In this document: piece by piece, positions 40,318 to 63,886 of the stretch
How positions within the stretch are numbered: position 1 is the first letter of the stretch
Layout of the letters: every line of letters starts with the position of its first letter
Assembly (NCBI GenBank): GCA_046290465.1
Contig: JBKAGP010000001.1
Span: forward strand, 2,688,001 to 2,752,000
Length of the DNA: 64,000 nt
Source of the DNA: Planctomycetota bacterium
Lineage (GTDB): Bacteria > Planctomycetota > UBA1135 > UBA2386
Direction: 5' to 3'
Made by a program: the position numbers and the translations under genes
Notes under the pieces: model-generated
What the model was told of the DNA's origin: nothing
The model's input: the letters and a program-made list of their open reading frames with translations, nothing else
Databases searched by the model: none

Positions 40318-43300
40318 TCAGGGCATCGAGACGTGGTCGCCGTCGCGCACGCCGTGGCCGGCCGCGACCAGCAGGTCGACGCCGCGGGCCATGACCTCGC
40401 GCACGTTGCTGCCGAGCCGCGAGATGCCGAAGCAGCGCGCGCACTCGCGCATCAGGTCTTCGGCGGCCAGGGCGTGGTGCTGCCGCAGCAGCCAGACCAT
40501 CGCGTGGGTGACCTCCACCATCGGCAGTTCCTCGGCGCTGCGCTCGCTGCGTTCGTCCTCCGGCACGCGGAAGCCACGGAACGCGGCGCGCTGCTCATCG
40601 CCGGCCCAGACGGTGTCGTGCTCGCTCTGCGATCCCGGCGGCAGCGCCGCGCGCACGCGAGCGCGCACCCTGTCGGTGACGCGCGAGACGTCCCAGGCCT
40701 CGGCGAGGCGGCGCACCAGCCGTTCGAACACCATCGGCGCCTCGACCTCGAGCATGCGGCGCACGGCGTCGACGTCGTCGCTGGCGCACGCTCCCTGGAG
40801 CAACTCGTGCGGACGCGGACCGTCCGGATCCGGCGGCGGAACGTGCGCGGACTCCGGTTCGCCGTCGTTCGCAGCATCCCCATCCGGCCCCTCCGGACTC
40901 TGCCGATCCTCGTCCGACGCGTCCTGGTCCCCCGAATCCCGGCACGACGGATCCCGGAGCAACGGATCCCGAAGTGACGAACCCTCGGGCGACGCATCCT
41001 CGCCCACCGCTCGGTCCGGTTCCGAAGACGCCCCCGGCGCCGGCTCGTCCGCGCCATCCGCCTCGCCGATCACCGCCGCGCCGGCCAGCCTGGGTTCGTC
41101 GGCCCGCGCCCGCGCCGCCGTCTCGGCGCGCTGCGCTTCCTCTTCGACGCGCGCCTGCTCGATCAGGACCTCGAGCCGCTCGAGTTCGCCGTCCGCGTCC
41201 TGCCAGTAGTCGGTCGACCAGACCCGCACCAGCCGCCAGCCGAGCCCGCGCAGCACCGCCGCGCGCAGCCGGTCGCGGTCGCGCGCGGTGGCCGCACGGT
41301 GGTAGGTCGCGCCATCGCACTCGATGCCGAGCAGGTAGCTGCCGGGCCGCGCCGGATCCTCGACCGCGAGGTCGATGCGATAGCCGCTGCAGCCGATCTG
41401 CGTGTGCACGGTGTGGCCGCGCGCGACCAGGGCGTCGCGCACCGACGCCTCGAACGGCGAGTCGACGTCGCGCGACGGGTCGCGTTCGATCGCGCCGACC
41501 AGCGCCGCCTCACCGCGCAGCGCGTAGTCGAGGAAGTGCCGCAGGTGCCGCGCTCCGGTCGCCGTCGAACGGTTCGCGACCTGCTCCGGACCGACCGACG
41601 AGAACACGACCAGCTCGCGGCGCGCCCGCGTCACGGCGACGTTGAGGCGACGCTCGCCACCCTGCAGGTTGAGCGGACCGTAGTTCTCGTAGACCTTGCC
41701 GGCCGCGTCCGGGCCGTAGCAGATCGAGAACAGGATCACGTCGCGCTCGTCCCCCTGCACGTTCTCGAGGTTCTTGACGAACAACTCCTCGTCGGCCTCG
41801 GCGAGCACCGTGTCGAGCGACGGATCGGCGCGCCGTTCGGCGTCGAGCAGATCCTCGATCAGGCTCTGCTGCGCGCGCGAGAACGTCACGATGCCGATGC
41901 TGCGGCGGGCGAGTTCCGGATCGCGCAGGCGACGCACGACGGCTGCGACCAGCGCCTCGGCCTCGGCCTTGTTCTGCTGCGACGCGGCGCGGTCGTAGAC
42001 GCCGTCGACGCGCACGCAGCGCACCCCGGCGCCGTCGTCGGCCGGCTCCGGTGCTGGGAACGTCAACAGCCGGTTCTGGTAGTAGTGGTGGTTGCTGAAC
42101 GCGATCAGCGACTCGTGCCGGCTGCGGTAGTGCCAGTCGAGGTGCATGCGCGGCAGGCCGGCCGCGGCGCACTCGTCGAGCACGCTCTCGAGGTCCTCGG
42201 GCACGTCGTCGACCTCGACGTCGTCGTCCGACGCGACCCGCTGGAAGAAGCTCGTCGGCGGCAGCTGCTTGCTGTCGCCGACGACGATCAGCGATTCGCC
42301 GCGGCCGATCGCACCGACCGCGTCCCACATCGGAATCTGCGAGGCCTCGTCGAACACCACCAGGTCGAAGCGCTGCGCGTCCCGATCGAGGAACTGCGCG
42401 ACCGACAGCGGGCTCATCAGCACGCACGGCGACAGCCGCGGCCACAGCCCGCGGATCTCGGCCAGCAGCCGACGCACCGGCTTGTGCCGCCGCTGCTTCT
42501 TGAGCTCCCGCTCGAGGATGCCCAGCTCGCTGCTCGCGACCTGCGTATCGCGAAGGCGCGGCAGCTTGGCGGCGAGCCGCGCGACCACGACCTTGGCGCC
42601 GAGTTCGATCGCCTTGCGGTCGAGTTCGGCGAACCGCGCGATCGCCGCCTCGTGGTCCTGACCGCGGAACCGCGCCAGCTCCGGCTCCTGCTGGTGCACG
42701 AGGTCCAGCCAGCCCTCATAGACGCTGCGGTCGAACGCCGCCCGCAGCTCGCGCGCCAGCAGTTCGCCGCTCGCGTGCGCTGTGACCAGCGCGCCGAGGT
42801 GCGCCTGCTCGGCCGCCGCTGCGGCGCGGCGATAGGCACACTGGTCGCGCAGCCCGGCCTCGTGGCGCAGCCAGCCTTCGACGCGCTGCGACACGCGGTC
42901 CAGATAGCCGGGCTCGACGTCGACACCAAACGCCTGCTCGAGGTCGAGGTCCAGGTGCTGCCCCACCTGCTGCCGCGCCGCCGCGAACTCGTCGTGCGCG
43001 GCGAACAGCTCCCCGCACAGCTGCGGCAGCGGACTCGCGCCGTCGTGCTGCGCGTCGACGTGCGTGGCGAGCGTCGCGAGCAGCTGCGCATCGGGCTGCA
43101 GCGAACCCGGCAGCAGCCGCAGCACCAGCTGGCGCAGTTCGCGGGCCTGCCGCAGCCAGCCGTCGACGGCGCCCCAGTCGGCGAGCCCGTCGCGCCAGTG
43201 GCTGCCGAGCCCGGTCGCCGCGGTCGCACAGCCGCGCAGTTCGCGCTCCTCATCGCGCACCCGCAGCGCCCGTTCGAGGTCGTCGCGGATCGACGCCGGC

Positions 43301-46300
43301 GCGCCGAGCGGTCCGGCCGCGACGCCGGCGAGCACCGGCTTGAGCTTGCGCAGGCGCCACCAGCGGAACACGAAGAACGTCTCCGCGTGCATCCGGTAGC
43401 TGGCGGCGAACGAGCCCAGGTCGAGCGCCAGCAGGTCGCGACGCCAGCGCGGCTCGAGCTGGGACCACAGGTCGTCGCGACGCCGGCCGATCGCGATGGC
43501 GCGCTCGAGGTCCTCGTCGAACTCGCGCCAGTCCGGCAGCCGCAGCCACGACGCCGGCGGCAGCGACGGCGCCTGCAGCGCACGCAGCAGCGCCAGCAGC
43601 GTCAACAGCTGTTCGTGGCTCGGGCCGACCTCGCCGAACGCCGCCTGCAGCGACAGCGCGTCGACGAGCGGCTGCACCGTGACGCGCAGGCCGTCGACCG
43701 CGCGCTGCAGCCGTTCGGCCATCGGGCGGAAGTCGCGCGTCACCGCCGGCGTCCAGTCGCCGCGCCGCACGCCCCACCACGGCGCCTGGTCGGGCACGCC
43801 GAGCGACGCGGACGCGACCACCAGCGCACCGACCGCCTCGCGCGCCGTCGCGACGACCTCGGGCGTGCTCGCCAGCAGCTCCGGCAGCGGCAGGCGCGTC
43901 GCGTCGCGCAGCTGCACCAGCTGCGACATCGCCTGGTGCACCGACCAACCGTGTTCGCGGCGGCGGTGCAGCGCGTGCACGAAGTCGTTGAGCTCGCCGC
44001 GCTGCGTCTGCAGCCGATCGGCGACGTCCTGCCACTCCTCGGGCGCGCGCCGGTAGCCGAGTTCGAGCGTCATGCGCAGCTGCTCGAGCACCGCCTTCGG
44101 GCCGCTCTTGGTCGAGTGCAGCTCGAGACAGAACGGCCCGAGGCCGACGTCGGCGAGACGGTGGTGCACGACCTCCAGCGCGGCCCGCTTCTCGGCGACG
44201 AACAGCACCCGCTTGCCGTTGGCGAGGCTCTGCGCAATCAGGTTGGTGATCGTCTGCGACTTGCCGGTGCCGGGCGGGCCCTCGAGCACGAACGACCGGC
44301 CGGCGCTGCCGGCCATCACCGCCGACAGCTGCGAGCTGTCGGCATCCTTGGGACAGAACACCTCGCTCGGGTCGAGCTCGTCGAGTTCCTCGCGCGGGAA
44401 CGCCCCGACCTCCTGCGGCAGCGCCGCACCGGGCGCCTCGATCAGGTGCCGCAGCACCGCGCTCTGCAGCAGCTCGTCCCGGTTCTTGAGGTCGAGCCAC
44501 ATCAGGTACTTGGTGAACGAGAAGAAGCCGAGGTGGGCGACGTCCTCGACCTCCCACCGCGGCATCGCCAGCGCCGTGCGGCGGAACACGTCGAGCACCT
44601 TGCCGACGTCGACGCCACGTTCGTCCTCCGGCAGCGGGTCGCCGATCGGCACCGACAGATCGAAGTCGCGCTCGAGCAGCTGCAGCAGCGTCGTGTTGAC
44701 GCGCACCTCGGCGTCGTCCATCACGAACCGGTAGCCCTCCTGCACCGACAGGCGTTCGATCACGATCGGCACCAGCAGCAGCGGCGCCCGCCGCGGCTTC
44801 TGCGACGAGTCGCTCTCGAACCAGCGCAGGAAGCCGAGAGAGAGGTAGAGCGTGTTGGCGCCGCTCTCCTCGATCGACGTGCGCGCGTGGCGGAAGATCT
44901 CGGTAAGCCGGGTGTCGAGCGCGTCGTGGTCGAGTTCGCAGCGCCAGCGGCCGGCGCGCAGCTCCTCGGCCAGGTACTCGGCGACCACGTCGGTGCCGGT
45001 GCGCTGCGACTCCAGCTCGAGGTCGCGCGGATCGTCGTCGGCGCCGAGCCGCGGCTTCGCGTGCAGCCGCATGCGCGCGCCCGACTGCAGGCGGTCCTCG
45101 ATCGCGCCGAGGTCGTGGCCGCTCAGCCGCACCGTCTTCTTGGTCTCGACGAAGTTCAGCAGCCGGTTGAACATCGACAGGTCGAGCAGCTTGTGCTGCC
45201 AGTGCTCGAGCCGGTCGCGGGCGTGGTTGGCGGGCGGCGGCGGCAGCTCGACCGGCGTCGGCAACGCGGCAGCCGGCACCGGTGCGCCGGGCTCGAGCAG
45301 TTCGATCGCGTCGGCCTCGGAGCCTTCGACGGTGCGATAGGCCGAGGTGCGCAGCGGCAGCGGCCGCATGCCGACCCGGCGAGCCGCGGCGATGTCGACC
45401 GCGACGCAGAACGCCTGCTCGTCGTCGAGGCGCTGGTCGCCGGCGGCGCGAGCACGCTGCGGCGACTGCGGCGGCACGACGCAGGCGACCGTCGACTCGA
45501 TCACCACCGCGACGCCGGCCTTGACCGCCTTGCGCAGTTCGAGTGCGGAGCCGAACGTCGGTTCGTCCAGCGACTGCCGTTCGACCCAGCAGCCGACCAG
45601 CGCATGGCCGCGCTGCACGATCACGAACGGATCGAGGCCGATGTGCTCACACAGCGCCGCGTAGAGCAGCGCCAGGTCGAGGCAGGTGCCCAGCCGTTCG
45701 CCGACGACCTGCTCCGGCAACCGGACCTTCTGGCCGACCTCCTCGAAGCTCGGCGGCGGGCTGACGTAGCGCACCCCGATCGACGAGACCGCCACGTGCA
45801 CGGCATCGAGCGTCGCGCGCACGCGCTCGGGATCGCCCTTCTGGTAGCCGTCGAGCGCGCCGTCGCCGGTCGCCCGTTCGAGCCGTTCTGCGACCGCGTG
45901 CAGCACCGGCGACAGCGCCGGATGGTTCGGCGACACGAACGCGGCCAGCAGCGACGGCAGCGCCTCGAGCCCCGGCCATTCGTTGTAGGCGAGCACGTCG
46001 ATCGGTTGCGTGCGCTGCGCCAGCACGTCGTCGCCGTCGAGCACCTGCACGACCAGCTCGGTGCGTGCGCGTTCGAGCAGGCTGGCGAACGCGTCCGCAC
46101 GCAGCGGCAGGTCGGGTGCATCGAGTTCGAGCGACGCGCCGGCCGGCAGCGAGTCGACGCGGCACTCGACACGTTCGGAGAAGTCGACGAGCTCGACCTT
46201 GACCACGAGCTCGCGCAGCGCCTCGTCGCCGTCGTTGTGCAGCGTCAGTTGGTGCAGCCACGGGACCGCGCTCTGCTGCATCGCGTAGCACAGGCGGTCC

Positions 46301-46338
46301 GCGTGGCGGACCTCGATGGCGAGCCCGGAAGTCGTCAC
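40318..46338 (-). CDS. DUF4011 - SF1 (Upf1-like) helicase - Vsr/MTES_1575-like nuclease - DUF3320 protein (Hhe-type defence candidate)
   Basis: WQHKLLDLS.FNRLLNF (DUF4011), GPPGTGKS, FDEASQ, GD.KQLPP, HYRS, ENVQGDERD, RLNVAVTRAR, RIDLAV..GIECDG..YH. Confidence 0.9.
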   Translation of the reverse strand: MTTSGLAIEVRHADRLCYAMQQSAVPWLHQLTLHNDGDEALRELVVKVELVDFSERVECRVDSLPAGASLELDAPDLPLRADAFASLLERARTELVVQVLDGDDVLAQRTQPIDVLAYNEWPGLEALPSLLAAFVSPNHPALSPVLHAVAERLERATGDGALDGYQKGDPERVRATLDAVHVAVSSIGVRYVSPPPSFEEVGQKVRLPEQVVGERLGTCLDLALLYAALCEHIGLDPFVIVQRGHALVGCWVERQSLDEPTFGSALELRKAVKAGVAVVIESTVACVVPPQSPQRARAAGDQRLDDEQAFCVAVDIAAARRVGMRPLPLRTSAYRTVEGSEADAIELLEPGAPVPAAALPTPVELPPPPANHARDRLEHWQHKLLDLSMFNRLLNFVETKKTVRLSGHDLGAIEDRLQSGARMRLHAKPRLGADDDPRDLELESQRTGTDVVAEYLAEELRAGRWRCELDHDALDTRLTEIFRHARTSIEESGANTLYLSLGFLRWFESDSSQKPRRAPLLLVPIVIERLSVQEGYRFVMDDAEVRVNTTLLQLLERDFDLSVPIGDPLPEDERGVDVGKVLDVFRRTALAMPRWEVEDVAHLGFFSFTKYLMWLDLKNRDELLQSAVLRHLIEAPGAALPQEVGAFPREELDELDPSEVFCPKDADSSQLSAVMAGSAGRSFVLEGPPGTGKSQTITNLIAQSLANGKRVLFVAEKRAALEVVHHRLADVGLGPFCLELHSTKSGPKAVLEQLRMTLELGYRRAPEEWQDVADRLQTQRGELNDFVHALHRRREHGWSVHQAMSQLVQLRDATRLPLPELLASTPEVVATAREAVGALVVASASLGVPDQAPWWGVRRGDWTPAVTRDFRPMAERLQRAVDGLRVTVQPLVDALSLQAAFGEVGPSHEQLLTLLALLRALQAPSLPPASWLRLPDWREFDEDLERAIAIGRRRDDLWSQLEPRWRRDLLALDLGSFAASYRMHAETFFVFRWWRLRKLKPVLAGVAAGPLGAPASIRDDLERALRVRDEERELRGCATAATGLGSHWRDGLADWGAVDGWLRQARELRQLVLRLLPGSLQPDAQLLATLATHVDAQHDGASPLPQLCGELFAAHDEFAAARQQVGQHLDLDLEQAFGVDVEPGYLDRVSQRVEGWLRHEAGLRDQCAYRRAAAAAEQAHLGALVTAHASGELLARELRAAFDRSVYEGWLDLVHQQEPELARFRGQDHEAAIARFAELDRKAIELGAKVVVARLAAKLPRLRDTQVASSELGILERELKKQRRHKPVRRLLAEIRGLWPRLSPCVLMSPLSVAQFLDRDAQRFDLVVFDEASQIPMWDAVGAIGRGESLIVVGDSKQLPPTSFFQRVASDDDVEVDDVPEDLESVLDECAAAGLPRMHLDWHYRSRHESLIAFSNHHYYQNRLLTFPAPEPADDGAGVRCVRVDGVYDRAASQQNKAEAEALVAAVVRRLRDPELARRSIGIVTFSRAQQSLIEDLLDAERRADPSLDTVLAEADEELFVKNLENVQGDERDVILFSICYGPDAAGKVYENYGPLNLQGGERRLNVAVTRARRELVVFSSVGPEQVANRSTATGARHLRHFLDYALRGEAALVGAIERDPSRDVDSPFEASVRDALVARGHTVHTQIGCSGYRIDLAVEDPARPGSYLLGIECDGATYHRAATARDRDRLRAAVLRGLGWRLVRVWSTDYWQDADGELERLEVLIEQARVEEEAQRAETAARARADEPRLAGAAVIGEADGADEPAPGASSEPDRAVGEDASPEGSSLRDPLLRDPSCRDSGDQDASDEDRQSPEGPDGDAANDGEPESAHVPPPDPDGPRPHELLQGACASDDVDAVRRMLEVEAPMVFERLVRRLAEAWDVSRVTDRVRARVRAALPPGSQSEHDTVWAGDEQRAAFRGFRVPEDERSERSAEELPMVEVTHAMVWLLRQHHALAAEDLMRECARCFGISRLGSNVREVMARGVDLLVAAGHGVRDGDHVSMP

Positions 46339-46351
46339 GCCGACAACGGTA

Positions 46352-47107
46352 CTAGGAGGTCGCGCGCCGATCGAGGTGCGTGTAGCCCCCGTCCACGAAC
46401 AGGATCTGCCCAGTCGTGTGCGACGAACGCGGCGACGCCACGAACGCGACGGTGGCCGCGATCTCGCCGGCGGTGGTGAAGCGCTGGCCGAGCGGGACCG
46501 AGCGCTCGATCCGGGCCCGCTCGCCCGAGGGATCCGGCTGCGTCGCCAGCCACGACTCGTAGAGCGGCGTCCACACCTCCGCGGGCAGCACCGCGTTGAC
46601 GCGCACCCCGTCGCCAGCCAGCTCGAGCGCCCATTCGCGGGTCAGCGCCACGACGCCACCCTTGGCCGCCGCGTAGCCCGAAGTGCCGCCCTGGCCGGTG
46701 ACCGCGACCTTGGAGCCGACGTTGACGATGCTGCCGCTTGACCGCGCGAGGTGCGGCCGCGCGAGGTGCGCCATGGTGTAGACGTGCACGAGGTTCTGCT
46801 GCAGCGACGCGGCGAACGCCTCGGGCCCGGCGTCGAGGCCGACGCCGTCGTTGCGGCCGGCGTTGTTGACCAGCACGTCGATCGAACCGAACTCCATCAC
46901 CGCGTCGGCGACGGCGCGGCGGCAGGTCTCGGGGTCGGCGAGGTCGCCGCGCACGCAGTGCACGCGCGGGCCTTCCGCCGGGCACGGGTCGCGGTCGACG
47001 ACCACGACCTTCATGCCTTCGTCGACCAGCAGTTCGACGATCGCGAGACCGATGCCGCTGCTGCCGCCGGTCACCACCGCCACCTTGTCCGTCAGCCCGA
47101 GGTCCAT
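46352..47107 (-). CDS. SDR oxidoreductase (L-fucose dehydrogenase-like)
   Basis: MDLGL.DKV, TGGSSGIG, NNAG.ND.VGL, TGQG.TSGYAAAKG, TTGQ..FVDGGY.HLDR. Confidence 0.88.
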   Translation of the reverse strand: MDLGLTDKVAVVTGGSSGIGLAIVELLVDEGMKVVVVDRDPCPAEGPRVHCVRGDLADPETCRRAVADAVMEFGSIDVLVNNAGRNDGVGLDAGPEAFAASLQQNLVHVYTMAHLARPHLARSSGSIVNVGSKVAVTGQGGTSGYAAAKGGVVALTREWALELAGDGVRVNAVLPAEVWTPLYESWLATQPDPSGERARIERSVPLGQRFTTAGEIAATVAFVASPRSSHTTGQILFVDGGYTHLDRRATS

Positions 47108-47117
47108 GCCGTTCCTG

Positions 47118-47720
47118 CTACCGCCCCTCGGCGCGACGCACGAGCATCGCCGCCTCCTCGTGGAACCCGGCCGGATGCGGGATGCGGCCGAACTCGTCGG
47201 GCCACTGCCAGCGAACGTCCTCGAACAGCTCACGCATGCGCTCGATCGGGCAGTCGAACGGCGGCCCGCCCTCGGCGCCGGTCTGCATGAACAGCGCGAA
47301 CAGCGGCGCCCCGGGCTCGAGCCAGGTCGCGAGCCGCAGCTCGTAGGCCTTCCAGTGCAGCGGGTCGAGCGCGCACAGGCAGGTCTGCTCGTAGATCGCG
47401 GCGAACGGCTGCTCCGGCCGCCACGACAGCAGATCCGCCTGCACGACGTGCGCCTCGAGACCTTCTGCCGCGAGCTGCTCGCGCAGCCTCGCCACCGGCT
47501 GGTCGGCGATGTCGACGGCCGTGACGTCGCAGCCGTAGCGTACCAGCTCGACGACCTCGTGGCCGTTGCCGCAGCCCGGCACCAGCACACGCCCCTTCGG
47601 CATCGCGCCGACCGCCAGCCACGCGCGCAGCGCCGCGCTCGCCTCGCCGCGATCCCAATGGGTCCGCCCCTGCTCGTAGCGCTGCTCCCAGTCGGCGCGC
47701 CGCTCGTTGGTTTCCGTCAT
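47118..47720 (-). CDS. thiopurine S-methyltransferase-like (TPMT) protein
   Basis: W..RY..G.T.WD.G, VLVPGCG.G, YEQT.LCAL, GPPF. Confidence 0.85.
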   Translation of the reverse strand: MTETNERRADWEQRYEQGRTHWDRGEASAALRAWLAVGAMPKGRVLVPGCGNGHEVVELVRYGCDVTAVDIADQPVARLREQLAAEGLEAHVVQADLLSWRPEQPFAAIYEQTCLCALDPLHWKAYELRLATWLEPGAPLFALFMQTGAEGGPPFDCPIERMRELFEDVRWQWPDEFGRIPHPAGFHEEAAMLVRRAEGR

Positions 47721-47747
47721 CGCACGCACGTTACACTGCCGCCCCAC

Positions 47748-48194
47748 ATGGGCACCGTCGAAGCCGTCTTCCTGCGCCCGTCGGCGCGCACCCCGGTCCG
47801 TTCGGTGGACGCCGCGAACGTCCTCGCCGGCATCGGCATCGAGGGCGACCACGCCGGCGGCGGCAAGCGGCAGATCACGATCCTGTCGCGCGAAGCCTGG
47901 CAGCAGGCGTGCCGCGAACTCGGCAAGGAACTCGACCCGTCGATCCGCCGCGCCAACGTGCTGGTCTCGGGGGTCGACCTGGCCGCGACGATCGGCAGCA
48001 CGCTGCGCATCGGTGACGTCGTCATCGACGTCAACGGCGAGACGCGTCCGTGCGAACTGATGGACGACGACGGCCGGGTCGGCCTGTGCGCGACGCTGCA
48101 GCCCGATCGCCGCGGCGGCGTGCACGGCATCGTGCGCGAAGGCGGCTCGCTGCGCGTCGGGGACCCCGTCGTCGTCGAGCCGCCTGGTGCATGA
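47748..48194 (+). CDS. MOSC domain protein
   Basis: GIEGD, RQITI, RRAN..V.G, PC, RGG, GD.V. Confidence 0.85.
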   Translation: MGTVEAVFLRPSARTPVRSVDAANVLAGIGIEGDHAGGGKRQITILSREAWQQACRELGKELDPSIRRANVLVSGVDLAATIGSTLRIGDVVIDVNGETRPCELMDDDGRVGLCATLQPDRRGGVHGIVREGGSLRVGDPVVVEPPGA

Positions 48195-48321
48195 ACAGCT
48201 GCGACCGGTCCTCGACCGCGGGCATCCGCCGGGTCCCGCGGGCTCGACGACCACGGCGTGCTCGCGAACGGCATCCTGACGACGGCTTCGGTGCAGCAAG
48301 CCGGCCCACGCCTCCGCTTAC

Positions 48322-48370
48322 ATGCACTGTATCGCAGCATCCGAGCTGCGAATGATGCGATATCCTGCTT
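48322..48370. promoter_or_regulatory. putative BoxR/BzdR-type operator pair
   Basis: ATGCA-CTGTAT-CGCAG (48322-48337) and ATGCG-ATATCC-TGCTT (48355-48370), degenerate TGCA-N6-TGCA in AT-richer DNA upstream of boxC. Confidence 0.4.
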
Positions 48371-48435
48371 GCGATCAAGAGCTGAGGATCCGACACTGTT
48401 TCCCCTCACTTTCAGGCTCTCAGATCGCTGGCCGC

Positions 48436-50073
48436 ATGACCGACTTCAACCGACACCCCGACACCTACCACCACTGGAAGCTCGAGTTCGACGGCGACGT
48501 CGCGCACCTGCGCATGAACGTCAACCCGGACCACCCCTTCCGTGACGGCTACGAACTCAAGCTCAACAGCTACGACCTGTCGGTCGACATGGAGCTGGCG
48601 GACGCGATCCAACGCCTGCGCTTCGAGCACCCCAACGTCAAGGCGCTGGTCGTCGGCAGCGGCCAGGAGCGCGCGTTCTGCGCGGGCGCGAACATCGTGA
48701 TGCTCAAGAGCAGCACGCACCCCTTCAAGGTGAACTTCTGCAAGTTCACCAACGAGACGCGCCTGAGCCTCGAGGACTACAGCCAGAACTCGGGCGTGCG
48801 TTCGGTGTGCGCGATCAACGCGGCGTGCGCCGGTGGCGGCTACGAGCTGGCGCTGGCCTGCGACGAGATCCACCTGGTCAACGACAACAACTCGGCCGTG
48901 TCGCTGCCCGAGGTGCCGCTGCTGGGCGTGCTGCCGGGCACCGGCGGCCTGACCCGCCTGGTCGACAAGCGCAAGATCCGCCGCGACCACGCCGACGTGT
49001 TCTGCACGATGGCCGAGGGCCTGCGCGGCAAGAAGGCGCTCAAGTGGAACTTCGTCGACGCGATCTGGCCGAAGTCGAAGTTCACCGACGCGATCGCCAA
49101 CCGCGCCAGCGAGATCGCCGGCGAGGCCAAGGACAAGGGTGCTGCCAAGGGCATCGAACTGAAGCCGATCGCCTATGAGAAGAGCGAAGAAGACGGCAAG
49201 ACCACGATGAAGTGGGAGCACGTCGAGGTCGTCGTCGAGCCGGGCCAGCGCCTGGCGCGCATCACGTTCACCGGCCCGATCGGCGACCAGCCGAAGGACG
49301 GCGCCGGCTTCGAGGCCGCGGGCTGCGACACCTGGGCGCTCAAGGCCTGGCGCGAGTTCGACGACGCGCTGCTGCAGCTGCGCTTCGACTACGAGGAGAT
49401 CGGCCTGGTCGTGCTCGAGACCCGCGGCGACCGCGGCGCGCTGGTCGAACTCGAGAAGACGCTCGACGCCAACCAGAACCACTGGCTCTGCAAGGAGATC
49501 CTGCTGCACATGGCGCGGGTCTGCCGCCGCTGGGACCTGATGGCGCGCTCGACCTACGCGCTGGTCGACGAGAAGGGCTGCGCCGCCGGCGCGTTCCTCG
49601 AGCTGATGATGGCCTGCGACCGCATCTACGCCAACGACGTCGACGAGGTCGAGTTCGTTGTCGGCCCGCTGAGCGACGGCGACCTGCCGATGAGCCACGG
49701 CCTCAGCCGCCTGCACAACCGCTTCCTGGCGACGCCCGAGCAGGGCGAGAAGCTCGCCAAGGAGCAGCCGACGCTGATCGCGCCCGAAGCCGACGAAGAA
49801 GGCCTCGTCACCTACCTGCTCGACCCGCTCGACTGGGAGGACGACGTGCGCATCGCGCTCGAGGAGCGGGTCTCGATGTCGCCCGATGCCCTCACCGGCA
49901 TGGAGGCCTCGCTCCGCTTCGGCGGCGCCGAGAACTGCGACAGCAAGATCTTCGGCCGCCTCAGCGCCTGGCAGAACTGGATCTTCACGCGTCCGAACGC
50001 CACCGGCGACGAAGGCGCACTCACCCGCTACGGCGCGCCCGAGGGCGCGCAGTTCGACTGGCGCCGCACCTAA
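48436..50073 (+). CDS. boxC: 2,3-epoxybenzoyl-CoA dihydrolase
   Basis: YxHWKL, LKLNSYDL.VD.EL, KVNFCKFTNETR, LPEVPLLGVLPGTGG, SPDALTGME, FGRL.AWQNWIF.RPNA. Confidence 0.96.
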   Translation: MTDFNRHPDTYHHWKLEFDGDVAHLRMNVNPDHPFRDGYELKLNSYDLSVDMELADAIQRLRFEHPNVKALVVGSGQERAFCAGANIVMLKSSTHPFKVNFCKFTNETRLSLEDYSQNSGVRSVCAINAACAGGGYELALACDEIHLVNDNNSAVSLPEVPLLGVLPGTGGLTRLVDKRKIRRDHADVFCTMAEGLRGKKALKWNFVDAIWPKSKFTDAIANRASEIAGEAKDKGAAKGIELKPIAYEKSEEDGKTTMKWEHVEVVVEPGQRLARITFTGPIGDQPKDGAGFEAAGCDTWALKAWREFDDALLQLRFDYEEIGLVVLETRGDRGALVELEKTLDANQNHWLCKEILLHMARVCRRWDLMARSTYALVDEKGCAAGAFLELMMACDRIYANDVDEVEFVVGPLSDGDLPMSHGLSRLHNRFLATPEQGEKLAKEQPTLIAPEADEEGLVTYLLDPLDWEDDVRIALEERVSMSPDALTGMEASLRFGGAENCDSKIFGRLSAWQNWIFTRPNATGDEGALTRYGAPEGAQFDWRRT

Positions 50074-50150
50074 CGGCCCGGACGCCAACACCCAACCGAT
50101 CACCTTTCCCTGAGGGGCATCCTTTCCTCACGGATTTCCAAGGCAACCTG

Positions 50151-51569
50151 ATGAGCAGCGTCGACCTCGAAGCAAAGATCCCGAACAACGTCGGACTCCG
50201 CGACAACAAGCGCCTGATGATGGCGCTCGAAAAGTGGCAGCCGAAGTTCCTCGACTGGTGGAAGACTGTCGGCCCGACGGACTTCAACGAGGACCAGATC
50301 TACCTGCGCACCGCCGTCGGCGTCGGCAAGGGCGGCTGGGCGCACTTCGACTACGTGAAGATGCCGGACTACCGCTGGGGCATCTTCCTCGCGGACGGGC
50401 CGGACGATCGCAAGATCCACTTCGGTGACAACATGGGCAGCGACGCCTGGCAGACCGTGCCGGGTGAGTTCCGCAACCGCCTGCGTCGCCTGATCGTCAC
50501 GCAGGGCGACACCGAGCCGGCGTCGGTCGAGCAGCAGCGCATGCTGGGCCACACCTGCCCGTCGCTCTACGACCTTCGCTCGCTGTTCCAGGTCAACGTC
50601 GAGGAAGGCCGCCACCTGTGGGCGATGGTCTACCTGCTGCAGACCTACTTCGGTGCCGACGGCCGCGACGAGGCCGAGGCGCTGCTCGAGCGCAACTCCG
50701 GCGACGTCGACAACCCGCGCATCCTCGAGGCGTTCAACTACCCGGTCACCAACTGGCTGGACTTCTTCTGCTTCACGGCCTTCATGGACCGGGACGGCAA
50801 GTACCAGCTGTCGTCGCTGGCCGAGTCGAGCTTCGACCCGCTGGCGCGTTCGACGCAGTTCATGCTGGCCGAGGAGGCCTACCACCTGCAGACCGGTGAG
50901 AACGGCGTCGGCCGCATCGTCAAGCGCACCGGTGAGCTGATGGCCGAGGGCAAGGACCCGCGCACCGAAGGCGCGATCCCGCTCGACATGATCCAGCGCT
51001 ACTGCAACTTCTGGTTCACCGGCTCGATGGACCTGTTCGGCGGCGAGGACTCGACCAACGCCGCCGAGGCGTTCGCGATGGGCCTGAAGGGCCGCTACCG
51101 CGAGTCGGACGGCATCTACAAGGACCCGAAGGCGCTCAACGCCGAGTACCGCCTGCAGGTGCCGACCGACGACGGCAAGCTCGAGGATAAGGACATCCCG
51201 CTGCGCCGCGCGATGAACGCGGTCCTGCTGGACGCCTACATCGCCGACTGCAGCCGCATCGTGCAGCGCTGGAACCGCGAGCTGAAGAAGCTCGGCGTCG
51301 ACCAGACGATCCAGTTGCCCGACCGCAAGTTCAACCGCCACCAGGGCGTCTACGCCGGCTACAAGTTCAACCCGCAGGGTGAGCTGATCGACGAGGCGAC
51401 CTGGACGCACGAGCACACCAAGTGGCTGCCGACGCAGGCGGACCGCGAGTACGTCGACTCCTGCATGGTCAAGGTCACCGAGCCCGGCAAGTTCGCGAAC
51501 TACATCGCGCCGCCGCAGAACGGCCCGAACAACCAGCCGATCGACTTCGAGTACGTCAAGTTCCACTAG
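50151..51569 (+). CDS. boxB: benzoyl-CoA 2,3-epoxidase di-iron subunit
   Basis: KIPNNV, YLRTAV, MPDYRWGIF, QGDTEPASVEQQ, EEGRH, DRDGKYQL, EEAYH. Confidence 0.96.
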   Translation: MSSVDLEAKIPNNVGLRDNKRLMMALEKWQPKFLDWWKTVGPTDFNEDQIYLRTAVGVGKGGWAHFDYVKMPDYRWGIFLADGPDDRKIHFGDNMGSDAWQTVPGEFRNRLRRLIVTQGDTEPASVEQQRMLGHTCPSLYDLRSLFQVNVEEGRHLWAMVYLLQTYFGADGRDEAEALLERNSGDVDNPRILEAFNYPVTNWLDFFCFTAFMDRDGKYQLSSLAESSFDPLARSTQFMLAEEAYHLQTGENGVGRIVKRTGELMAEGKDPRTEGAIPLDMIQRYCNFWFTGSMDLFGGEDSTNAAEAFAMGLKGRYRESDGIYKDPKALNAEYRLQVPTDDGKLEDKDIPLRRAMNAVLLDAYIADCSRIVQRWNRELKKLGVDQTIQLPDRKFNRHQGVYAGYKFNPQGELIDEATWTHEHTKWLPTQADREYVDSCMVKVTEPGKFANYIAPPQNGPNNQPIDFEYVKFH

Positions 51570-51737
51570 CCGGCTTGGCTCGCGGAGCGAGCCGGACCGA
51601 CTGGGTTCCACTTCGGATCGTGGCTACGTGGAGGCATCCTCCGCGAGGCCATCCGCAACCGGCCCGCTGCCGCGATCCTCGGCCTCGCTTCGCGAGGCGA
51701 TGCGCCTTCGGCGCTCCCCTGTTGCGCCTGAATCCTG

Positions 51738-52073
51738 ATGACGAATCGTCTTTGTTATGTCTGTGAAGGCGGCGACTGCACCGAGAAGGGCAGCGGCGAC
51801 CTGTTCGACAAGCTCCGCGACCTGGTCAAGCAGTTCGACCCGGACGAGGAGCGCATCAAGGTGCGCCGCTACCCGTGCTTCGGCGCGTGCGAGCAGGGCA
51901 TCAACGTGACGCTGTTCCCCGACAAGGTGTTCTACAGCACCGTCACCGAGAACGACCTCGCCGAGATCGTCGCGCACATCAAGGGCGAGGGCGAGGTCCC
52001 CGAACGCCTGACCGGCAAGTGCGAGCCGGACGTCGAGCAGATCATCTGGGACATGCTCGACAGTCCTTACTAG
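51738..52073 (+). CDS. thioredoxin-like (NuoE-type) [2Fe-2S] ferredoxin
   Basis: C9-x4-C14-x32-C47-x3-C51, G.N..P..V.Y..V...D...IV..H. Confidence 0.88.
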   Translation: MTNRLCYVCEGGDCTEKGSGDLFDKLRDLVKQFDPDEERIKVRRYPCFGACEQGINVTLFPDKVFYSTVTENDLAEIVAHIKGEGEVPERLTGKCEPDVEQIIWDMLDSPY

Positions 52074-52105
52074 CTGGCCTTGCTGGCTGGCCTTGCTGGC
52101 TGGCC
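52073..52105. repeat. 13-bp tandem repeat, about 2.5 copies
   Basis: GCTGGCCTTGCTG at 52073 and 52086, partial at 52099. Confidence 0.75.
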
Positions 52106-52234
52106 GGCTTGCTGGCCCCGCCAGACCGATTTCTTGTCCGCCGGTGCCCCCCGGTGACGTTCTTCTCGGTTGGAGACCGTCCGCAAGGACGGGAGACAGG
52201 AGAAGAAGAAGAGATCAGAGAGACACGCAGGTCA

Positions 52235-52273
52235 GGCGGCAGCCATCACGAGTGGCTGCCGCCAATTTTCTTC
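52235..52273 (+). terminator. intrinsic terminator of box operon
   Basis: GGCGGCAGCCA-N7-TGGCTGCCGCC 11-bp stem followed by AATTTTCTTC. Confidence 0.7.
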
Positions 52274-52400
52274 GCGCCCTGCGCTCGACGCGCCAGCGCC
52301 CGGCGCGCCTGCGGACGACCCGCCCCACCGTCACACCTTCACGCAGCGCTCACGGCGCCTCCATACCCGCGTGCAGAACAGTTCTCTCGGACGTTCTGCA

Positions 52401-53318
52401 ATGGGTTGGATACTGCGAGGTCGACGCCCCTGGCGCCGGAAGGGCCGGGTCCTGCTGCTGCTGGGCCTGTCCGCGTGCGCCGTCTGGGCCACGTCGACCC
52501 ACGGCGGCCGCGCCACGGTCGTCCCGGCGAGCCACCCGATGCGCGTGGCCGCCAGCGAGCAGGTGCGCATCCAGACGCTCAACGTGTTCGGGCTGCCGTG
52601 GCCGCTGGCCCCCGACGTCGAGCCGCGCTGCCAGCGCATCGCGCAGCAGATCGCCAGCGACAGCGCCGACGTGATCGCGCTGCAGGAGGCGTGGGGCGAG
52701 GACGCGAGCGCGCCGTTCGCGATGCCCTACCACCACCGCGCGTCGTGCCGCCAGCCCGCCTGCCTCTACGGATCGAGCGGCCTGATGACGCTGTCGCGGC
52801 ATCCGATCCGGCACGCCGAGTCGCGCTTCTTCCGCGCCGGTGACGGCATCGAGACGATCGTCTCCAAGGGCATCCTTCGCACGATCGTGACGCTGCCCGA
52901 CGGCGAACTCGACGTCTGGAACCTGCATCTGCAGAGCGGCCTCGACGACGTCGCCATCCGCATAGCACAGATCGCCGAGCTGCTGCAGTGGATCGAGCAG
53001 GACGGGGACGTGCGCCGGGCCGCGATCGTCGGCGACTTCAACTGCGCCCCCGGCGACCCGGAGTTCGCGACGCTGCTGGCCGGCATGGAGCGGCTCGGCT
53101 TCGTGCACGCGTCCTGCGGCAAGCCCACCTACGACGCCACCGTCAACCCGCTGGCGATGAAGGAACGGCCGAAGGAGATCGACCACATCTTCGTGCGCGG
53201 CCACGGCCGGTCGGTGGCCGCCGACCGCGTCTTCGACCAGCCGATCGACGGCCAGCTGCCATCCGACCACTTCGGGGTCGAGGCGGTGCTGACCGCGGCC
53301 TACTCGTCGCGCAGGTAG
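52401..53318 (+). CDS. endonuclease/exonuclease/phosphatase family (sphingomyelinase-like), exported
   Basis: TLNV, LQE, SGL..LSR.PI, KG, HL, GDFN, IDH, SDH. Confidence 0.85.
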   Translation: MGWILRGRRPWRRKGRVLLLLGLSACAVWATSTHGGRATVVPASHPMRVAASEQVRIQTLNVFGLPWPLAPDVEPRCQRIAQQIASDSADVIALQEAWGEDASAPFAMPYHHRASCRQPACLYGSSGLMTLSRHPIRHAESRFFRAGDGIETIVSKGILRTIVTLPDGELDVWNLHLQSGLDDVAIRIAQIAELLQWIEQDGDVRRAAIVGDFNCAPGDPEFATLLAGMERLGFVHASCGKPTYDATVNPLAMKERPKEIDHIFVRGHGRSVAADRVFDQPIDGQLPSDHFGVEAVLTAAYSSRR

Positions 53319-54559
53319 CGCCGTCGGCAGAAGAAGAAGCCGTCGTGCAGGTAGTGCACGAGCAGCAGCGAGAAGCCGAGCAGGTAGTAGGCGAGCAGCA
53401 CCGAACCGGGTCGGTAGAGCTCCTTGCCGGCCGCGTCGCGCAGCGGCTCGTCGTGGCCGAACATCGCGAACTGGCCGTTGCTGGTCGCGGCGATCAACCA
53501 CGCCGCACCGAGCAGCACGACGATCGCACCGAGCGTCGCGAACAGCGCCGAGCGGTAGAAGCGCCAGTGCCGCCCCTCGCCCATGTTGCGGTCGAAGAAG
53601 CCGTACGAGATCTCGTTCTTCTGCTTGCTGCGTTCGTTCATCAGCCACAGCACGCCCAGGTACTGGAAGCTGTGCCAGGCGTTGAGGCCCTGGAATGCGC
53701 TGTCGAGGTTGGGCAGCAGCGGCACGGTCGAGCCGAGCAGCGCCATCGCGACGACCAGTTGGAAGCGGCGACGGACCAGCGTGCCTTCGCGGTATTCGCG
53801 CAGGCTCTTCCACGCGAACAGCGCCACCGACACCAAGAACGCGGTCGTGATCGCGATCCACAGCGCCGGGTGCATCAGGAACTCGGGCAGCAGCGGCGCG
53901 ACCCGGCCGATCTTGAAGATGTACTCGTCGGCGAACTCCTGGCTGCCGGACAGCCACGTGACGATCTGCGTCGCCAGCGCGTCCGGGTTGGCTCCGCGCA
54001 TCGTCAGGTCCGTCTTGTCGATCATCGACATGCGGAAGAACGACGCCGGATACATCGCAAACAGCAGCACGGCGTAGTCGACCCACGCCAGCCGCTGCGC
54101 CTTCTGGCCGTAGGCGCTCGCCACGAAGCTGTGCTGGTGCACGATGTGCACGCCGGCCCAGAAGAAAAAGAACGTCAGGATGTAGCGGATCGGCGGCGAG
54201 CCGGCGATCAGCACGTCGAAGAACGCCGAGCTGATCGCGGCACCGACGACGACCAGCGGCACGCACAGCCCGAGCACGAACAGCAGCGGTTCCTGCTTGC
54301 GGAAGCGTGGGTTGAAGTAGGTGCGCGTGTAGGTCGCGAACACGTGCGGGCCGCCGAGCGGCACCATCACCAGCAGCGTGACCATGTCCTCGGCCGCCGA
54401 CACGCCCGCGCCGAGCGCGCGGAACAGGTAGAACGCGAGGATCGGAACGGGCACCAGCCACGCGCCGCCGGCCACGAAGAACTTGTCCCACGTGCGGCTG
54501 CGCAACTGCTGCGTCGGTTGGACTTCGGCCCCGAGGGCTCCAGGTGCGAGCGTGGTCAT
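53300..54559 (-). CDS. polytopic membrane protein with conserved His motifs
   Basis: About 10 hydrophobic segments; PHVFATY, HIVHQH, WHSFQY, HYLHDG. Confidence 0.75.
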   Translation of the reverse strand: MTTLAPGALGAEVQPTQQLRSRTWDKFFVAGGAWLVPVPILAFYLFRALGAGVSAAEDMVTLLVMVPLGGPHVFATYTRTYFNPRFRKQEPLLFVLGLCVPLVVVGAAISSAFFDVLIAGSPPIRYILTFFFFWAGVHIVHQHSFVASAYGQKAQRLAWVDYAVLLFAMYPASFFRMSMIDKTDLTMRGANPDALATQIVTWLSGSQEFADEYIFKIGRVAPLLPEFLMHPALWIAITTAFLVSVALFAWKSLREYREGTLVRRRFQLVVAMALLGSTVPLLPNLDSAFQGLNAWHSFQYLGVLWLMNERSKQKNEISYGFFDRNMGEGRHWRFYRSALFATLGAIVVLLGAAWLIAATSNGQFAMFGHDEPLRDAAGKELYRPGSVLLAYYLLGFSLLLVHYLHDGFFFCRRRYLRDE

Positions 54560-58591: not shown

Positions 58592-59686
58592 CTACTTGTC
58601 GCCGCCGTCCTCGGTCATCTTGGCGACGAGGTCCTTGGCGATGCGGGTCGCCTCCTCGCCGTCGTGGCCGCGGTAGTGGATCTTGAACTCGCTGTCCAGG
58701 ATCACGACCGTCGGCCAGCCCTTGACCGCCCAGTCGGTGGAGATCTTCTCCGGCCGACCTTCGTTCTGGTTCTGGAAGCTGCGCCAGTTGAGCTTGTTCT
58801 CGGCGATGGCCTTCTTGGCGCGCTCGATCGTGCTGTCACTGTTGACACCGACCAGAGCGAACGGCTTGTCCTTCATCTCTTCCACGAGCGACCGCTCGTG
58901 CGGGTACATGGCCCGGCAAGGGCCTCACCAGTCGCCCCAGAAGTCGAGGAAGATGACCTTGCCCTTGTAGTCGCTCAGCTTGAACGCCACGCCGTCGAGG
59001 TCGACGCCCGCGATGTCGGGGGCCGTGCAGCCGATCCCGAACTTCTCGCGCTCGTCGATCGCGCCGTTGATCTGGCCGACGAGGCCCTTGTCCTCGACCT
59101 TCCCGGCGATCGCGAGCAGCTTGGCGCGCGCCGCCTGGTACTCGTCACCCTCGATGTCGGCCGAGGTGATCGTCTTCTGGTGCGTCGCGAACAACGCCCA
59201 ACCGCGAACGTCCACCGACTTGCTCTGCATGAGCTTCGCGCGGGCGTCCTTGGCGAACTCCGGCGACACGATGCGATCGAGGAACGGGATCATGCGACCC
59301 ATCGCCGCCAGCTTGGGGCTGTCGATGTGGTCCTTCAGCAGCACCTCGAGGGCCGGACGCGCCTTCTGCTGGTCGAGGTTCACGACCATCATCAGGAAGT
59401 CGATGGCCTCGTCCTTGCCGGCGTAGTCCTTCGCGTATTCCAGCGCCTTGTCGGCGACCGGACCGAAGTCGGGGCGCATGCGCATCGCGCGAACGGGCTT
59501 GCCGTCCTGCGGCTTCTGCGCCTGCTTCATCGAATCGCGCCACTCCTTGACCGCCTGCTGCTGCAGGTCATTGAGCTCCTGCATGCGCTCGGCGGCGCTC
59601 GGCGCCTTGGTGACGGGTTTGGCGGGCTCCTGCGCGGCGACCGTGCCGAGCAGCAGAACCCCCGCCAGGAGGGATAGGGTCTTCAT
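58592..59686 (-). CDS. exported TlpA/ResA-like thiol-disulfide oxidoreductase, selenoprotein (UGA at 58925-58927 read as Sec; U-G-P-C)
   Basis: ORFs 58925-59686 and 58592-58909 are in frame and joined by TGA-GGC-CCT-TGC, giving LDFWGDW-U-GPC; downstream GVNSD and WPT..ILD complete the fold; 364 aa. Confidence 0.9.
58883..58924 (-). promoter_or_regulatory. putative bacterial SECIS element
   Basis: After UGA: GGCCC-UUGCC-GGGCC hairpin, then CACGAGC-GGUC-GCUCGUG stem-loop whose G-initiated loop starts 32 nt after UGA. Confidence 0.65.
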
Positions 59687-62650: not shown

Positions 62651-63886
62651 GTGCCATCGCCTGCGCTGCTGCTCCCCGAACGATCCTCCACCGAGCCCGA
62701 GGGCCTGGCCGAATACCGCCAGCGCGGCGGCTACCAGGGCCTTTCCGCCGTCCAGCAGCGCGGTCCCGCGTGGCTGTGCGACGAGGTCGAGGCGTCGGGG
62801 CTGCGCGGGCGCGGTGGCGCGGCGTTCCCGACGATCCGCAAGTGGCGCCTGGCGGCGGATGCCGAGGGCGGCGAGAAGTACATCGTCGCCAATGGCGGCG
62901 AGCACGAGCCGGGCAGCAACAAGGACCGCCATCTGGTCGAACGGCATCCACACGCGGTGCTCGAGGGCCTGCTGTGTGCGGGCCTCGCGACCGGGGCGAG
63001 CAAGGGCTACCTGTACCTGATCGAGGACATGGATGGCCCGCGCAGGAGCGCCGAGATGGCGGTGCGCGAGGCGGAGCAAGCGGGGTTGCTGCCGTTTCCG
63101 GTCGAGATCCACCTCGGGCCGACGACCTACGTCGCCGGTGAGGAGACCGCGGCGCTCAACTCGATCGAGGGCCAGCCGGCCAAGCCTCGCAAGAAGCCGC
63201 CGTTCCCCGGCGAAGCGGGGCTGTTCGGCAAGCCGACGACGGTGAACAACACCGAGACGCTGGCGCACGTCGCGTGGATCGCGCGCGAGGGCAGCGCGCC
63301 GTTCGCCGCGATCGGCACCGCCGAGAGCAAGGGCACGCTGCTGTTCACGCTCGGCGACGAGGTGAACCGGCCCGGCGTCTACGAGTTGCCGTTCGGCGCC
63401 AGCTACCGCGACCTGATCGAGGGCTGCGGCGGCGGCGTCCGGGACGGCAAGGCGATCCGCGCGATCCTGCCGGCGATGTCGGCGCCGTTCCTGCACGCGA
63501 GCCTGCTCGACGTGCCGATCGGCTACGAGACGCTCGCCGCGCACGGCAGCGGCCCCGGCTGCGGCGGGGTGCGCATCGTGACCGAGGACACCGACGTGGT
63601 CGCGATGACGATCGAGATCGCCGAGTTCTTCATGAAGGAGCAGTGCGGCCAGTGCCCGCCGTGTCGCATGGAGACCAACCAGTTCGTGCACATCCTCAAG
63701 GCCGTGCAGGCCGGCAAGGGGCCGGGCTACGACGCCAAGCTGACCAGGCTGGCGACGTTCTCGCGCCGCAAGGGCCACTGCTCGTTGATCGAGATGGCGG
63801 CGGCTCCCGTGGTCAGCGCGCTGAGCGTGTTCGCCGACGACTTCGCCGCGGCCGCCGGCCCGGGCACGCCCGACGCCGACAGCTAG
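62651..63886 (+). CDS. stand-alone NuoF-like NAD(P)H-binding FMN/[4Fe-4S] protein
   Basis: SGLRGRGGAAFP, EPG..KDR, YVAGEETA, KPP.P...GL.GKPT.VNN.ETL, CGQCPPC...C. Confidence 0.9.
   Translation: MPSPALLLPERSSTEPEGLAEYRQRGGYQGLSAVQQRGPAWLCDEVEASGLRGRGGAAFPTIRKWRLAADAEGGEKYIVANGGEHEPGSNKDRHLVERHPHAVLEGLLCAGLATGASKGYLYLIEDMDGPRRSAEMAVREAEQAGLLPFPVEIHLGPTTYVAGEETAALNSIEGQPAKPRKKPPFPGEAGLFGKPTTVNNTETLAHVAWIAREGSAPFAAIGTAESKGTLLFTLGDEVNRPGVYELPFGASYRDLIEGCGGGVRDGKAIRAILPAMSAPFLHASLLDVPIGYETLAAHGSGPGCGGVRIVTEDTDVVAMTIEIAEFFMKEQCGQCPPCRMETNQFVHILKAVQAGKGPGYDAKLTRLATFSRRKGHCSLIEMAAAPVVSALSVFADDFAAAAGPGTPDADS

Follow-up and report, generated by a model that had tools for sequence, protein, structure and literature searches.

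The closest described relative of the locus analysed here is the BoxABC(D) system of Aromatoleum (Azoarcus) evansii and the Burkholderiales (3PER, 3PF7, 3PM5 and 3Q1G), in which the di-iron epoxidase BoxB is served by the reductase BoxA, a protein that contains FAD and two [4Fe-4S] clusters and uses NADPH according to the accessible sections of PMC4498308. The canonical gene order is boxR-boxC-boxB-boxA. Clusters that lack BoxA are read as incomplete in the part of PMC10803450 that was available, and a ligase-boxB-boxC cluster has been described with boxA unmentioned in the available text (PMC4782131). The literature searched, as far as its accessible parts extend, describes no reductase for BoxB other than BoxA, and its titles and abstract openings, with subscription journals mostly outside the search and supplements likewise, name neither a ferredoxin nor a NuoF-type donor for BoxB. 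Here we describe a stretch of 64,000 nucleotides from a Planctomycetota bacterium (assembly GCA_046290465.1, contig JBKAGP010000001.1, positions 2,688,001 to 2,752,000; the whole stretch is referred to as the window) in which boxC and boxB are followed, at the position of boxA, by a gene for a thioredoxin-like [2Fe-2S] ferredoxin. The locus is a conserved variant of the Box system that likely draws on a NuoF-type reductase together with this ferredoxin.

The three genes lie in this order on the forward strand and are followed by a terminator-like hairpin, a layout proposed in an initial annotation of the window and borne out by family profiles, sequence motifs and the predicted fold. The boxC product (48436-50073; 545 residues; TIGR03222, ECH_1) scores 700 bits against TIGR03222, just under the cut-off of 712.3, matching positions 2-547 of 548, and the next family reaches 88.9 bits. 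BoxB (50151-51569; 472 residues) is a full-length member of the di-iron benzoyl-CoA epoxidase family: it aligns with positions 1-471 of TIGR03225 at 671.8 bits (cut-off 499.1) and matches structure 3PER with an E value of 1.3e-171. All six iron ligands (E120, E150, H153, D211, E240 and H243) are kept, as are 12 of the 13 active-site residues named in PMC5489048; the pocket for the benzoyl group (Q116, T119, S123, F193, F203, F206 and T210) retains six of its seven residues, Thr210 being replaced by Met.

The window contains no boxA, boxR or benzoate-CoA ligase, as had been noted initially, and boxR (NF006015, over cut-off; C1:5032703) and boxD (NF008868, 635 bits, over cut-off; C1:737115, unlinked) sit elsewhere in the genome, which is a single contig (C1) and 94% complete, its genes called by a custom codon model that performs poorly on low-GC loci. 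No canonical boxA was found anywhere in this genome. The sole match to TIGR03224 is NqrF, which at 41.9 bits stays far below the cut-off of 459.2, and a tblastn search with a real BoxA, from Mycetohabitans, also retrieved NqrF only. It could be argued that a hidden or divergent boxA is present; FNR-type NAD-binding domains, however, occur in just two proteins of the genome, NqrF and a PyrK-like protein of 261 residues, and neither the family hidden Markov model nor the BoxA query nor the domain search retrieved such a gene. Indeed boxA exceeds the cut-off in none of 61 genomes (this one and 60 relatives), nor in any of 351 Planctomycetota genomes that are at least 85% complete, five candidates per genome having been scored in part of that survey.

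The gene in the boxA slot (51738-52073) encodes an acidic protein of 111 residues with the cysteine motif C9-x4-C14...C47-x3-C51, whose four cysteines are invariant in all 22 aligned orthologues, and with a conserved C-terminal helix (residues 97-107). Its model (pLDDT 88.9) adopts a thioredoxin-like [2Fe-2S] fold, with Foldseek matches to 1F37, 1M2A and 7Q4V_B, and the protein is predicted to carry a [2Fe-2S] cluster. The score against PF01257 (E 4e-05, 23.9 bits) is below the cut-off of 24.8, and the protein lies far under the cut-offs of NF041612 and NF041613. It is most similar to free thioredoxin-like ferredoxins and to the HydB N-terminal domain, the match to NuoE being weaker. The designation 'NuoE-type' in the initial annotation is a loose label, because the protein begins at the first strand, lacks the helical N-terminal domain of NuoE and scores 19.5 bits against TIGR01958, for which the cut-off is 142.4. 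The free thioredoxin-like ferredoxins of Aquifex aeolicus (1F37, 1M2A), Azotobacter (FeSI, 5ABR) and the Clostridium pasteurianum type resemble it in fold (TM ~0.7) and size but differ from it in three respects: here the first cysteine spacing is shorter (x4), the acidic C-terminal helix is conserved and the position between BoxB and a NuoF-like protein is fixed.

Conservation of this arrangement was assessed in the 61 genomes, 48 of which have boxB over the cut-off, with ortholog limits placed at gaps in sequence identity (ferredoxin at least 52%, the next sequence at 38%; flavoprotein, discussed below, at least 50%, the next at 44%, with three partial sequences at contig ends). The ferredoxin occurs in 43 of the 61 genomes and lies no more than 302 bp behind boxB in 42 of these, the remaining case being divided by contig ends, and because the association is this strict the arrangement is not a product of chance. 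The absence of boxA together with a ferredoxin conserved next to boxB makes the alternative electron route that had been proposed for the locus the best reading. As first put forward that reading was incomplete, because a ferredoxin alone cannot accept electrons from NAD(P)H; the probable reductase, encoded at 62651-63886, had not been linked to it.

This reductase candidate, found by clustering the neighbours of boxB, is a stand-alone flavoprotein of 411 residues that resembles the core of NuoF and HydB and is encoded 10.6 kb downstream of the ferredoxin on the same strand. It comprises the FMN/NAD(P)H-binding domain (Complex1_51K), an SLBB domain and the [4Fe-4S] domain (NADH_4Fe-4S), of which Cys332, Cys335, Cys338 and Cys377 are invariant in 13 aligned rows. 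Against the NuoF profile TIGR01959 the protein scores 345 bits, under the cut-off of 558.65, and its best PDB matches are HydB cores. A single HydB chain (7T2R_B) in fact matches both proteins, the ferredoxin over residues 9-104 and the flavoprotein over residues 124-524; the flavoprotein ends after the [4Fe-4S] bundle and thus is without the C-terminal 2x[4Fe-4S] domain of HydB. On these comparisons the pair is closer to a HydB that has been split and truncated than to NuoE. A natural fusion of the ferredoxin subfamily to BoxB or to the NuoF-like flavoprotein was not seen among 13 longer matches, which is weak evidence; these were HydB/NfnB-type proteins with the standard motif and a single sequence joined to part of a ribonucleotide reductase, which comes from a contig of 1.4 kb and is probably artefactual.

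The flavoprotein is present in 40 of the 43 ferredoxin-bearing genomes vs 1 of the 18 others (G024, 69% complete). Where the two genes share a contig the flavoprotein gene is always downstream on the same strand (28/28), within 31 kb in 27 cases and within 100 bp in 5; in the genus of this bacterium the distance is 4-30 kb in each of the 10 genomes with a shared contig. Besides boxC, three neighbour families recur in 40 fetched stretches: the ferredoxin, boxR in divergent orientation (19 of the 39 boxB loci) and the NuoF-like protein of 410 residues (13 loci). The contiguous arrangement boxR(divergent)-boxC-boxB-ferredoxin-nuoF-like occurs in G023, G042, G055, G059 and G398, and boxC-boxB-ferredoxin-nuoF-like in G019, the ferredoxin again occupying the position that boxA has in the canonical order. 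Among the 351 Planctomycetota genomes 117 contain boxB, 10 the ferredoxin and 9 the flavoprotein; all 10 ferredoxin genes are directly behind boxB and all 9 flavoprotein genomes bear boxB.

The pairing extends to other phyla. A profile search retrieved distant members of the ferredoxin subfamily, and we examined the best 80 of 226 distant relatives of the ferredoxin from a contig scan, mostly from Binatota and Acidobacteriota. A NuoF-like gene follows within 300 bp in 70 of these loci and a short BoxB-like gene (~365 codons) precedes within 400 bp in 61, with one more at 405 bp; both neighbours are present in 54 loci, neither in 3, and boxA in none. The flavoproteins of the Acidobacteriota/Binatota-type loci, a sister clade to the group found here, share with the protein studied here the derived motifs NGGE[H/D]EPGS and CGQCP[P/A]CRME. 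In a tree of 59 selected rows that included 12 NuoF proteins of complex I and 11 formate-dehydrogenase-type or other sequences, and no HydB, the ferredoxin-linked flavoproteins group together in a single clade (SH-aLRT 100) that is distinct from the NuoF of complex I and from the formate dehydrogenase beta subunits.

The full-length BoxB proteins that are accompanied by the ferredoxin likewise form one clade (31/31 rows, support 99; 24/24, support 100). For the second tree 18 rows had been removed as nearly identical or very distant, and the analysis included one BoxA-linked BoxB only. This clade is nested within ferredoxin-less BoxBs of Planctomycetota, the deeper nodes being moderately supported, and the short BoxBs are set apart by a long branch. 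Most simply, the module would have been grafted once onto a full-length BoxB. A genome of another order (G398) has the contiguous boxR-boxC-boxB-ferredoxin-flavoprotein cluster with both BoxB and flavoprotein nested among the sequences of the order to which this bacterium belongs, and a member of the same family as that genome (G318) has an unrelated BoxB; within the family of this bacterium one genome (G027, 85% complete) encodes a BoxB that falls outside the clade and has neither partner. These two cases fit a unit that may have moved, and been lost, as a whole.

Further di-iron-like genes were noted. In three Acidobacteriota loci (L116:7559-8284, L160:4984-5709 and L174:7614-8338) a second PaaA_PaaC-family gene, of 241 codons, stands behind the NuoF-like gene, and two di-iron-like genes thus flank the module. 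A separate pairing of the ferredoxin fold with the BoxB/PaaA family is found in five relatives (L086:13247-14370, L087:14062-15176, L088:6861-7915, L091:6979-8026 and L094:6573-7633), mostly inside a cluster of acyl-CoA dehydrogenase, enoyl-CoA hydratase and kynureninase-like genes, where a second, Aquifex-type thioredoxin-like ferredoxin directly precedes a PaaA_PaaC-family di-iron-like gene of 230-240 codons. Three loci (L098:6167-7432, L099:7539-8792 and L100:7875-9128) encode a divergent BoxB-like protein of 417-421 residues with all iron ligands kept and a changed pocket; in the latter two it adjoins enoyl-CoA hydratase and dehydrogenase genes.

In the reading that we consider probable, this is a BoxA-less Box module in which the ferredoxin likely carries electrons to BoxB from the NuoF-like flavoprotein at 62651-63886. 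As judged from the genomes, the likely route would be NAD(P)H to FMN to [4Fe-4S] to ferredoxin to the di-iron site of BoxB. Hydride from NAD(P)H would be transferred to the FMN of the NuoF-like protein, which would pass single electrons, directly or through its [4Fe-4S] cluster, to the ferredoxin; the ferredoxin would reduce the di-ferric site of BoxB twice, and BoxB with O2 would then epoxidize benzoyl-CoA or a close analogue. BoxC would open the ring and the unlinked BoxD would oxidize the resulting aldehyde. In the accessible sections of PMC10021017 and PMC12018979 the thioredoxin-like domains of HydABC, which carry [2Fe-2S] clusters, are located beside the FMN core and are mobile, which fits a role for the ferredoxin as a shuttle. 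According to the available part of PMC4498308, BoxA works transiently and in small amounts, and an unlinked reductase gene is therefore plausible. No paper on the residue that sets NADH or NADPH specificity was found in the literature searched.

Comparison with known systems defines what is shared and what is not. With BoxABC(D) the locus shares a BoxB of full length that keeps every iron ligand, a boxC gene immediately upstream, BoxD in the genome, a divergent BoxR in 19 of the 39 fetched loci and an electron-transfer gene directly behind boxB; it differs in that the [2Fe-2S] thioredoxin-like ferredoxin and the FMN/[4Fe-4S] NuoF-like protein stand in place of BoxA, the search for a benzoate-CoA ligase in the genome gave none, boxR and boxD are dispersed, as is the flavoprotein gene, and Thr210 is Met. 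HydB/NfnB of the Bfu family (7Q4V, 7T2R and 9BOV) provide the best PDB matches of both proteins and combine a thioredoxin-like [2Fe-2S] domain with an FMN/[4Fe-4S] core (domain layout as given in the accessible part of PMC10021017); here, in contrast, the parts are encoded by two genes, the C-terminal 2x[4Fe-4S] domain and a HydC or HydA partner are lacking, and the motif is NGGE[H/D]EPGS rather than NADEGDPG. Because the pair corresponds to a HydB whose N-terminal thioredoxin domain and core are encoded separately and whose C-terminal 2x[4Fe-4S] domain is missing, bifurcation is not expected. NuoE/NuoF and FdsG/FdsB share the NuoF domain order, the four [4Fe-4S] cysteines and the C-x4-C plus C-x3-C ferredoxin motif, but both proteins studied here are under the respective family cut-offs, the NuoE helical domain and a genomic NuoD are lacking and the clade is separate. 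The phenylacetyl-CoA epoxidase PaaABCE is also a di-iron epoxidase fed by flavin and [2Fe-2S] carriers; its PaaE, however, is an FNR-type FAD/[2Fe-2S] fusion (PMC4498308, in the part available). Flavin and [2Fe-2S] carriers likewise feed toluene 4-monooxygenase, a three-component di-iron monooxygenase with a separate ferredoxin. Neither system is known to use a NuoF-type flavoprotein or a thioredoxin-fold ferredoxin.

Several observations weigh against the proposed route. In this genome the flavoprotein gene lies past the terminator, adjoins an rRNA-methyltransferase-like gene and is outside the boxB operon. Three ferredoxin-bearing genomes are without the flavoprotein (G007, 85% complete; G037, 93%; G049, 90%), and 15 of the 80 distant loci have ferredoxin and flavoprotein with no BoxB-like gene within the fetched flanks. 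Structure prediction of the ferredoxin-flavoprotein complex gave weak support (0.37 vs 0.00 for the best control; contacts agree to at least 81%, partner pLDDT 82), and likeness to solved HydB/NuoEF may account for the score; of 157 solved pairs 116 attained the mark applied, as did 2 of 215 mismatched pairs, but only 18 of the 157 solved pairs, and both mismatches, attained it at or below 0.60. The full-length ferredoxin-linked BoxBs are one clade, and the 43 genomes therefore amount to roughly one event. BoxA and the ferredoxin/NuoF-like module are both absent from about 107 of the 117 Planctomycetota genomes with boxB, and no linked redox gene recurs behind boxB in 48 Planctomycetota loci (46 without the module); BoxB is therefore evidently reducible by an unlinked donor.

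These points give room to other explanations. It could be argued that ferredoxin and flavoprotein are accessory, serving di-iron repair, reactivation, metallation or O2 protection, with the electrons for turnover supplied by the unlinked donor that the other BoxA-less Planctomycetota would use. The lack of a linked reductase in the great majority of boxB genomes of the phylum is in keeping with this idea, as is a GBBH-like_N protein that replaces the module behind boxB in one family, and XylT, YfaE and FeSII are reportedly ferredoxins that reactivate oxygenases or protect enzymes. We regard it as unlikely, however: the genes sit at the exact position of boxA and would form a complete converter of two-electron to one-electron transfer, as BoxA does, and a shared unlinked donor was not identified. 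We are slightly more sceptical still of a scheme in which the ferredoxin feeds BoxB but is reduced by a housekeeping enzyme, with the NuoF-like protein employed elsewhere or one of several donors. The three genomes that lack the flavoprotein, the 4-30 kb that separate the genes throughout the genus and three or four distant loci that have BoxB and ferredoxin with room downstream and no adjacent flavoprotein can be accommodated by it; the 40/43 vs 1/18 co-occurrence, the adjacency in 70 of 80 loci of other phyla and the single ferredoxin-tied flavoprotein clade speak for a dedicated partner, and the FNR-type NAD-binding proteins of the genome are limited to NqrF and the PyrK-like protein. Little credence can be given to the view that the two proteins are displaced NuoE/NuoF subunits of complex I, or parts of formate dehydrogenase, that lie near boxB by accident. 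Family resemblance alone favours it, and it is largely refuted: NuoD was not found in this genome and is missing from 28 of the 36 members of the family, a nuo operon with its own nuoE and nuoF accompanies the two genes in five relatives, and the NuoF-like clade is separate. The genome has an Na+-NQR operon near C1:5946000, and its only other NuoF homologue is the beta subunit of a formate dehydrogenase (fds) operon with its own gamma subunit, the latter being the sole PF01257 match in the genome, which thus offers no HydC-type partner.

The substrate of the pathway is a related question. That of BoxB would likely be benzoyl-CoA or a close analogue. A reading that deserves attention, although we consider it less likely, retains the electron chain as proposed (and is thus compatible with it) but supposes that the physiological substrate is not benzoyl-CoA itself but a substituted form of it, such as the catabolism of tryptophan/anthranilate or salicylate might provide. 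A benzoate-CoA ligase was not found in the genome, where the best match reaches 206 bits against a cut-off of 375.25 and is acetyl-CoA-synthetase-like by sequence reading; a class III CoA-transferase was not found either, and a ligase over the cut-off is present in just 5 of the 37 family genomes. The change of Thr210 to Met is shared with 11 close relatives. A salicylyl-CoA 5-hydroxylase-type gene that exceeds its cut-off is present in the genome, as are genes that on inspection are kynureninase-like and tryptophan-dioxygenase-like. Yet the selectivity of BoxB is attributed, in the part of PMC5489048 available, to the Thr210-Asp211 peptide, 12 of the 13 named active-site residues are kept, Thr is retained in 20 of the 24 ferredoxin-linked BoxBs of the second tree, BoxC, BoxD and BoxR are all present in the genome and an aminobenzoate-type ligase is equally not found.

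Other features of the window and the genomes bear less directly on the module. The 168-bp spacer between boxB and the ferredoxin gene (51570-51737, forward strand) folds well as RNA over its first 150 bases (z = -3.58, 2/200 shuffles); a single blastn match shows one copy in the genome, which rules out a repeat element, and its length varies from 6 to 302 bp among relatives. The intrinsic-terminator-like hairpin (52235-52273, forward strand), with a 12-bp stem and a U-rich tail, has a fold z of -5.26 (0/200 shuffles), to be read against five terminator-like sites in the region where 4.0 are expected by chance. No sigma-70-like promoter was found within 46000-54000. Four of 24 expression runs, all consisting of contigs, were compared with the locus and not used as evidence: in the RNA run X8 one contig from a relative reaches from the last part of boxB into the first part of the ferredoxin gene, and X5 holds short near-identical pieces of boxC and boxB, but contigs can show neither transcription nor a co-transcript. 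Neighbouring MOSC, methyltransferase, short-chain dehydrogenase/reductase (SDR) and endonuclease/phosphatase genes are kept in a few close relatives only and were left out of the module. Upstream of boxC, in six close loci, is a helicase-like protein of 2006 residues (40318-46338, reverse strand) with a C-terminal part that reads as restriction-endonuclease-like. The window also encodes a molybdopterin oxidoreductase of 935 residues (29703-33930, forward strand) between a protein of 296 residues with a Tat-like N-terminus and a TorD-like gene, the flanking labels being sequence readings, and, at 58592-59686 on the reverse strand, two in-frame open reading frames joined by one TGA that would yield an exported TlpA-like protein of 364 residues with a U-G-P-C motif, likely a selenoprotein. 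Elsewhere in the genome (G000), C1:3230320-3232554 and 4704914-4707699 hold the salicylyl-CoA 5-hydroxylase-type gene and an acyl-CoA dehydrogenase/hydratase/SDR trio, with no aryl-CoA ligase found. The GBBH-like_N (PF06155) protein of the one family mentioned above (f33) is small, contains Cys and is encoded at the boxB end or close to it in L230, L238, L242, L245, L247, L253 and L255.

On balance we lean towards a broader interpretation in which the split, truncated HydB/NuoF-type diaphorase would be a dedicated and undescribed class of reductase for BoxB-family epoxidases, serving two widely separated BoxB lineages across three phyla or more, grafted once onto full-length BoxB and then moved as a cassette; BoxA would be the exception in Planctomycetota (0 of the 117 boxB genomes), so that at least one further donor would exist. 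Since BoxB is full-length here and stands beside BoxC, it comes with a known assay and a likely substrate and is the easiest test case for the module, which also adjoins short BoxB proteins in other phyla. If the proposal is correct, many BoxA-less clusters would be functional rather than incomplete, and aerobic benzoyl-CoA catabolism would be common in Planctomycetota, boxB being present in 117 of the 351 sampled genomes. The NADH module of complex I would gain a new role, that of powering an oxygenase, and the free thioredoxin-like ferredoxins could gain a defined partner.

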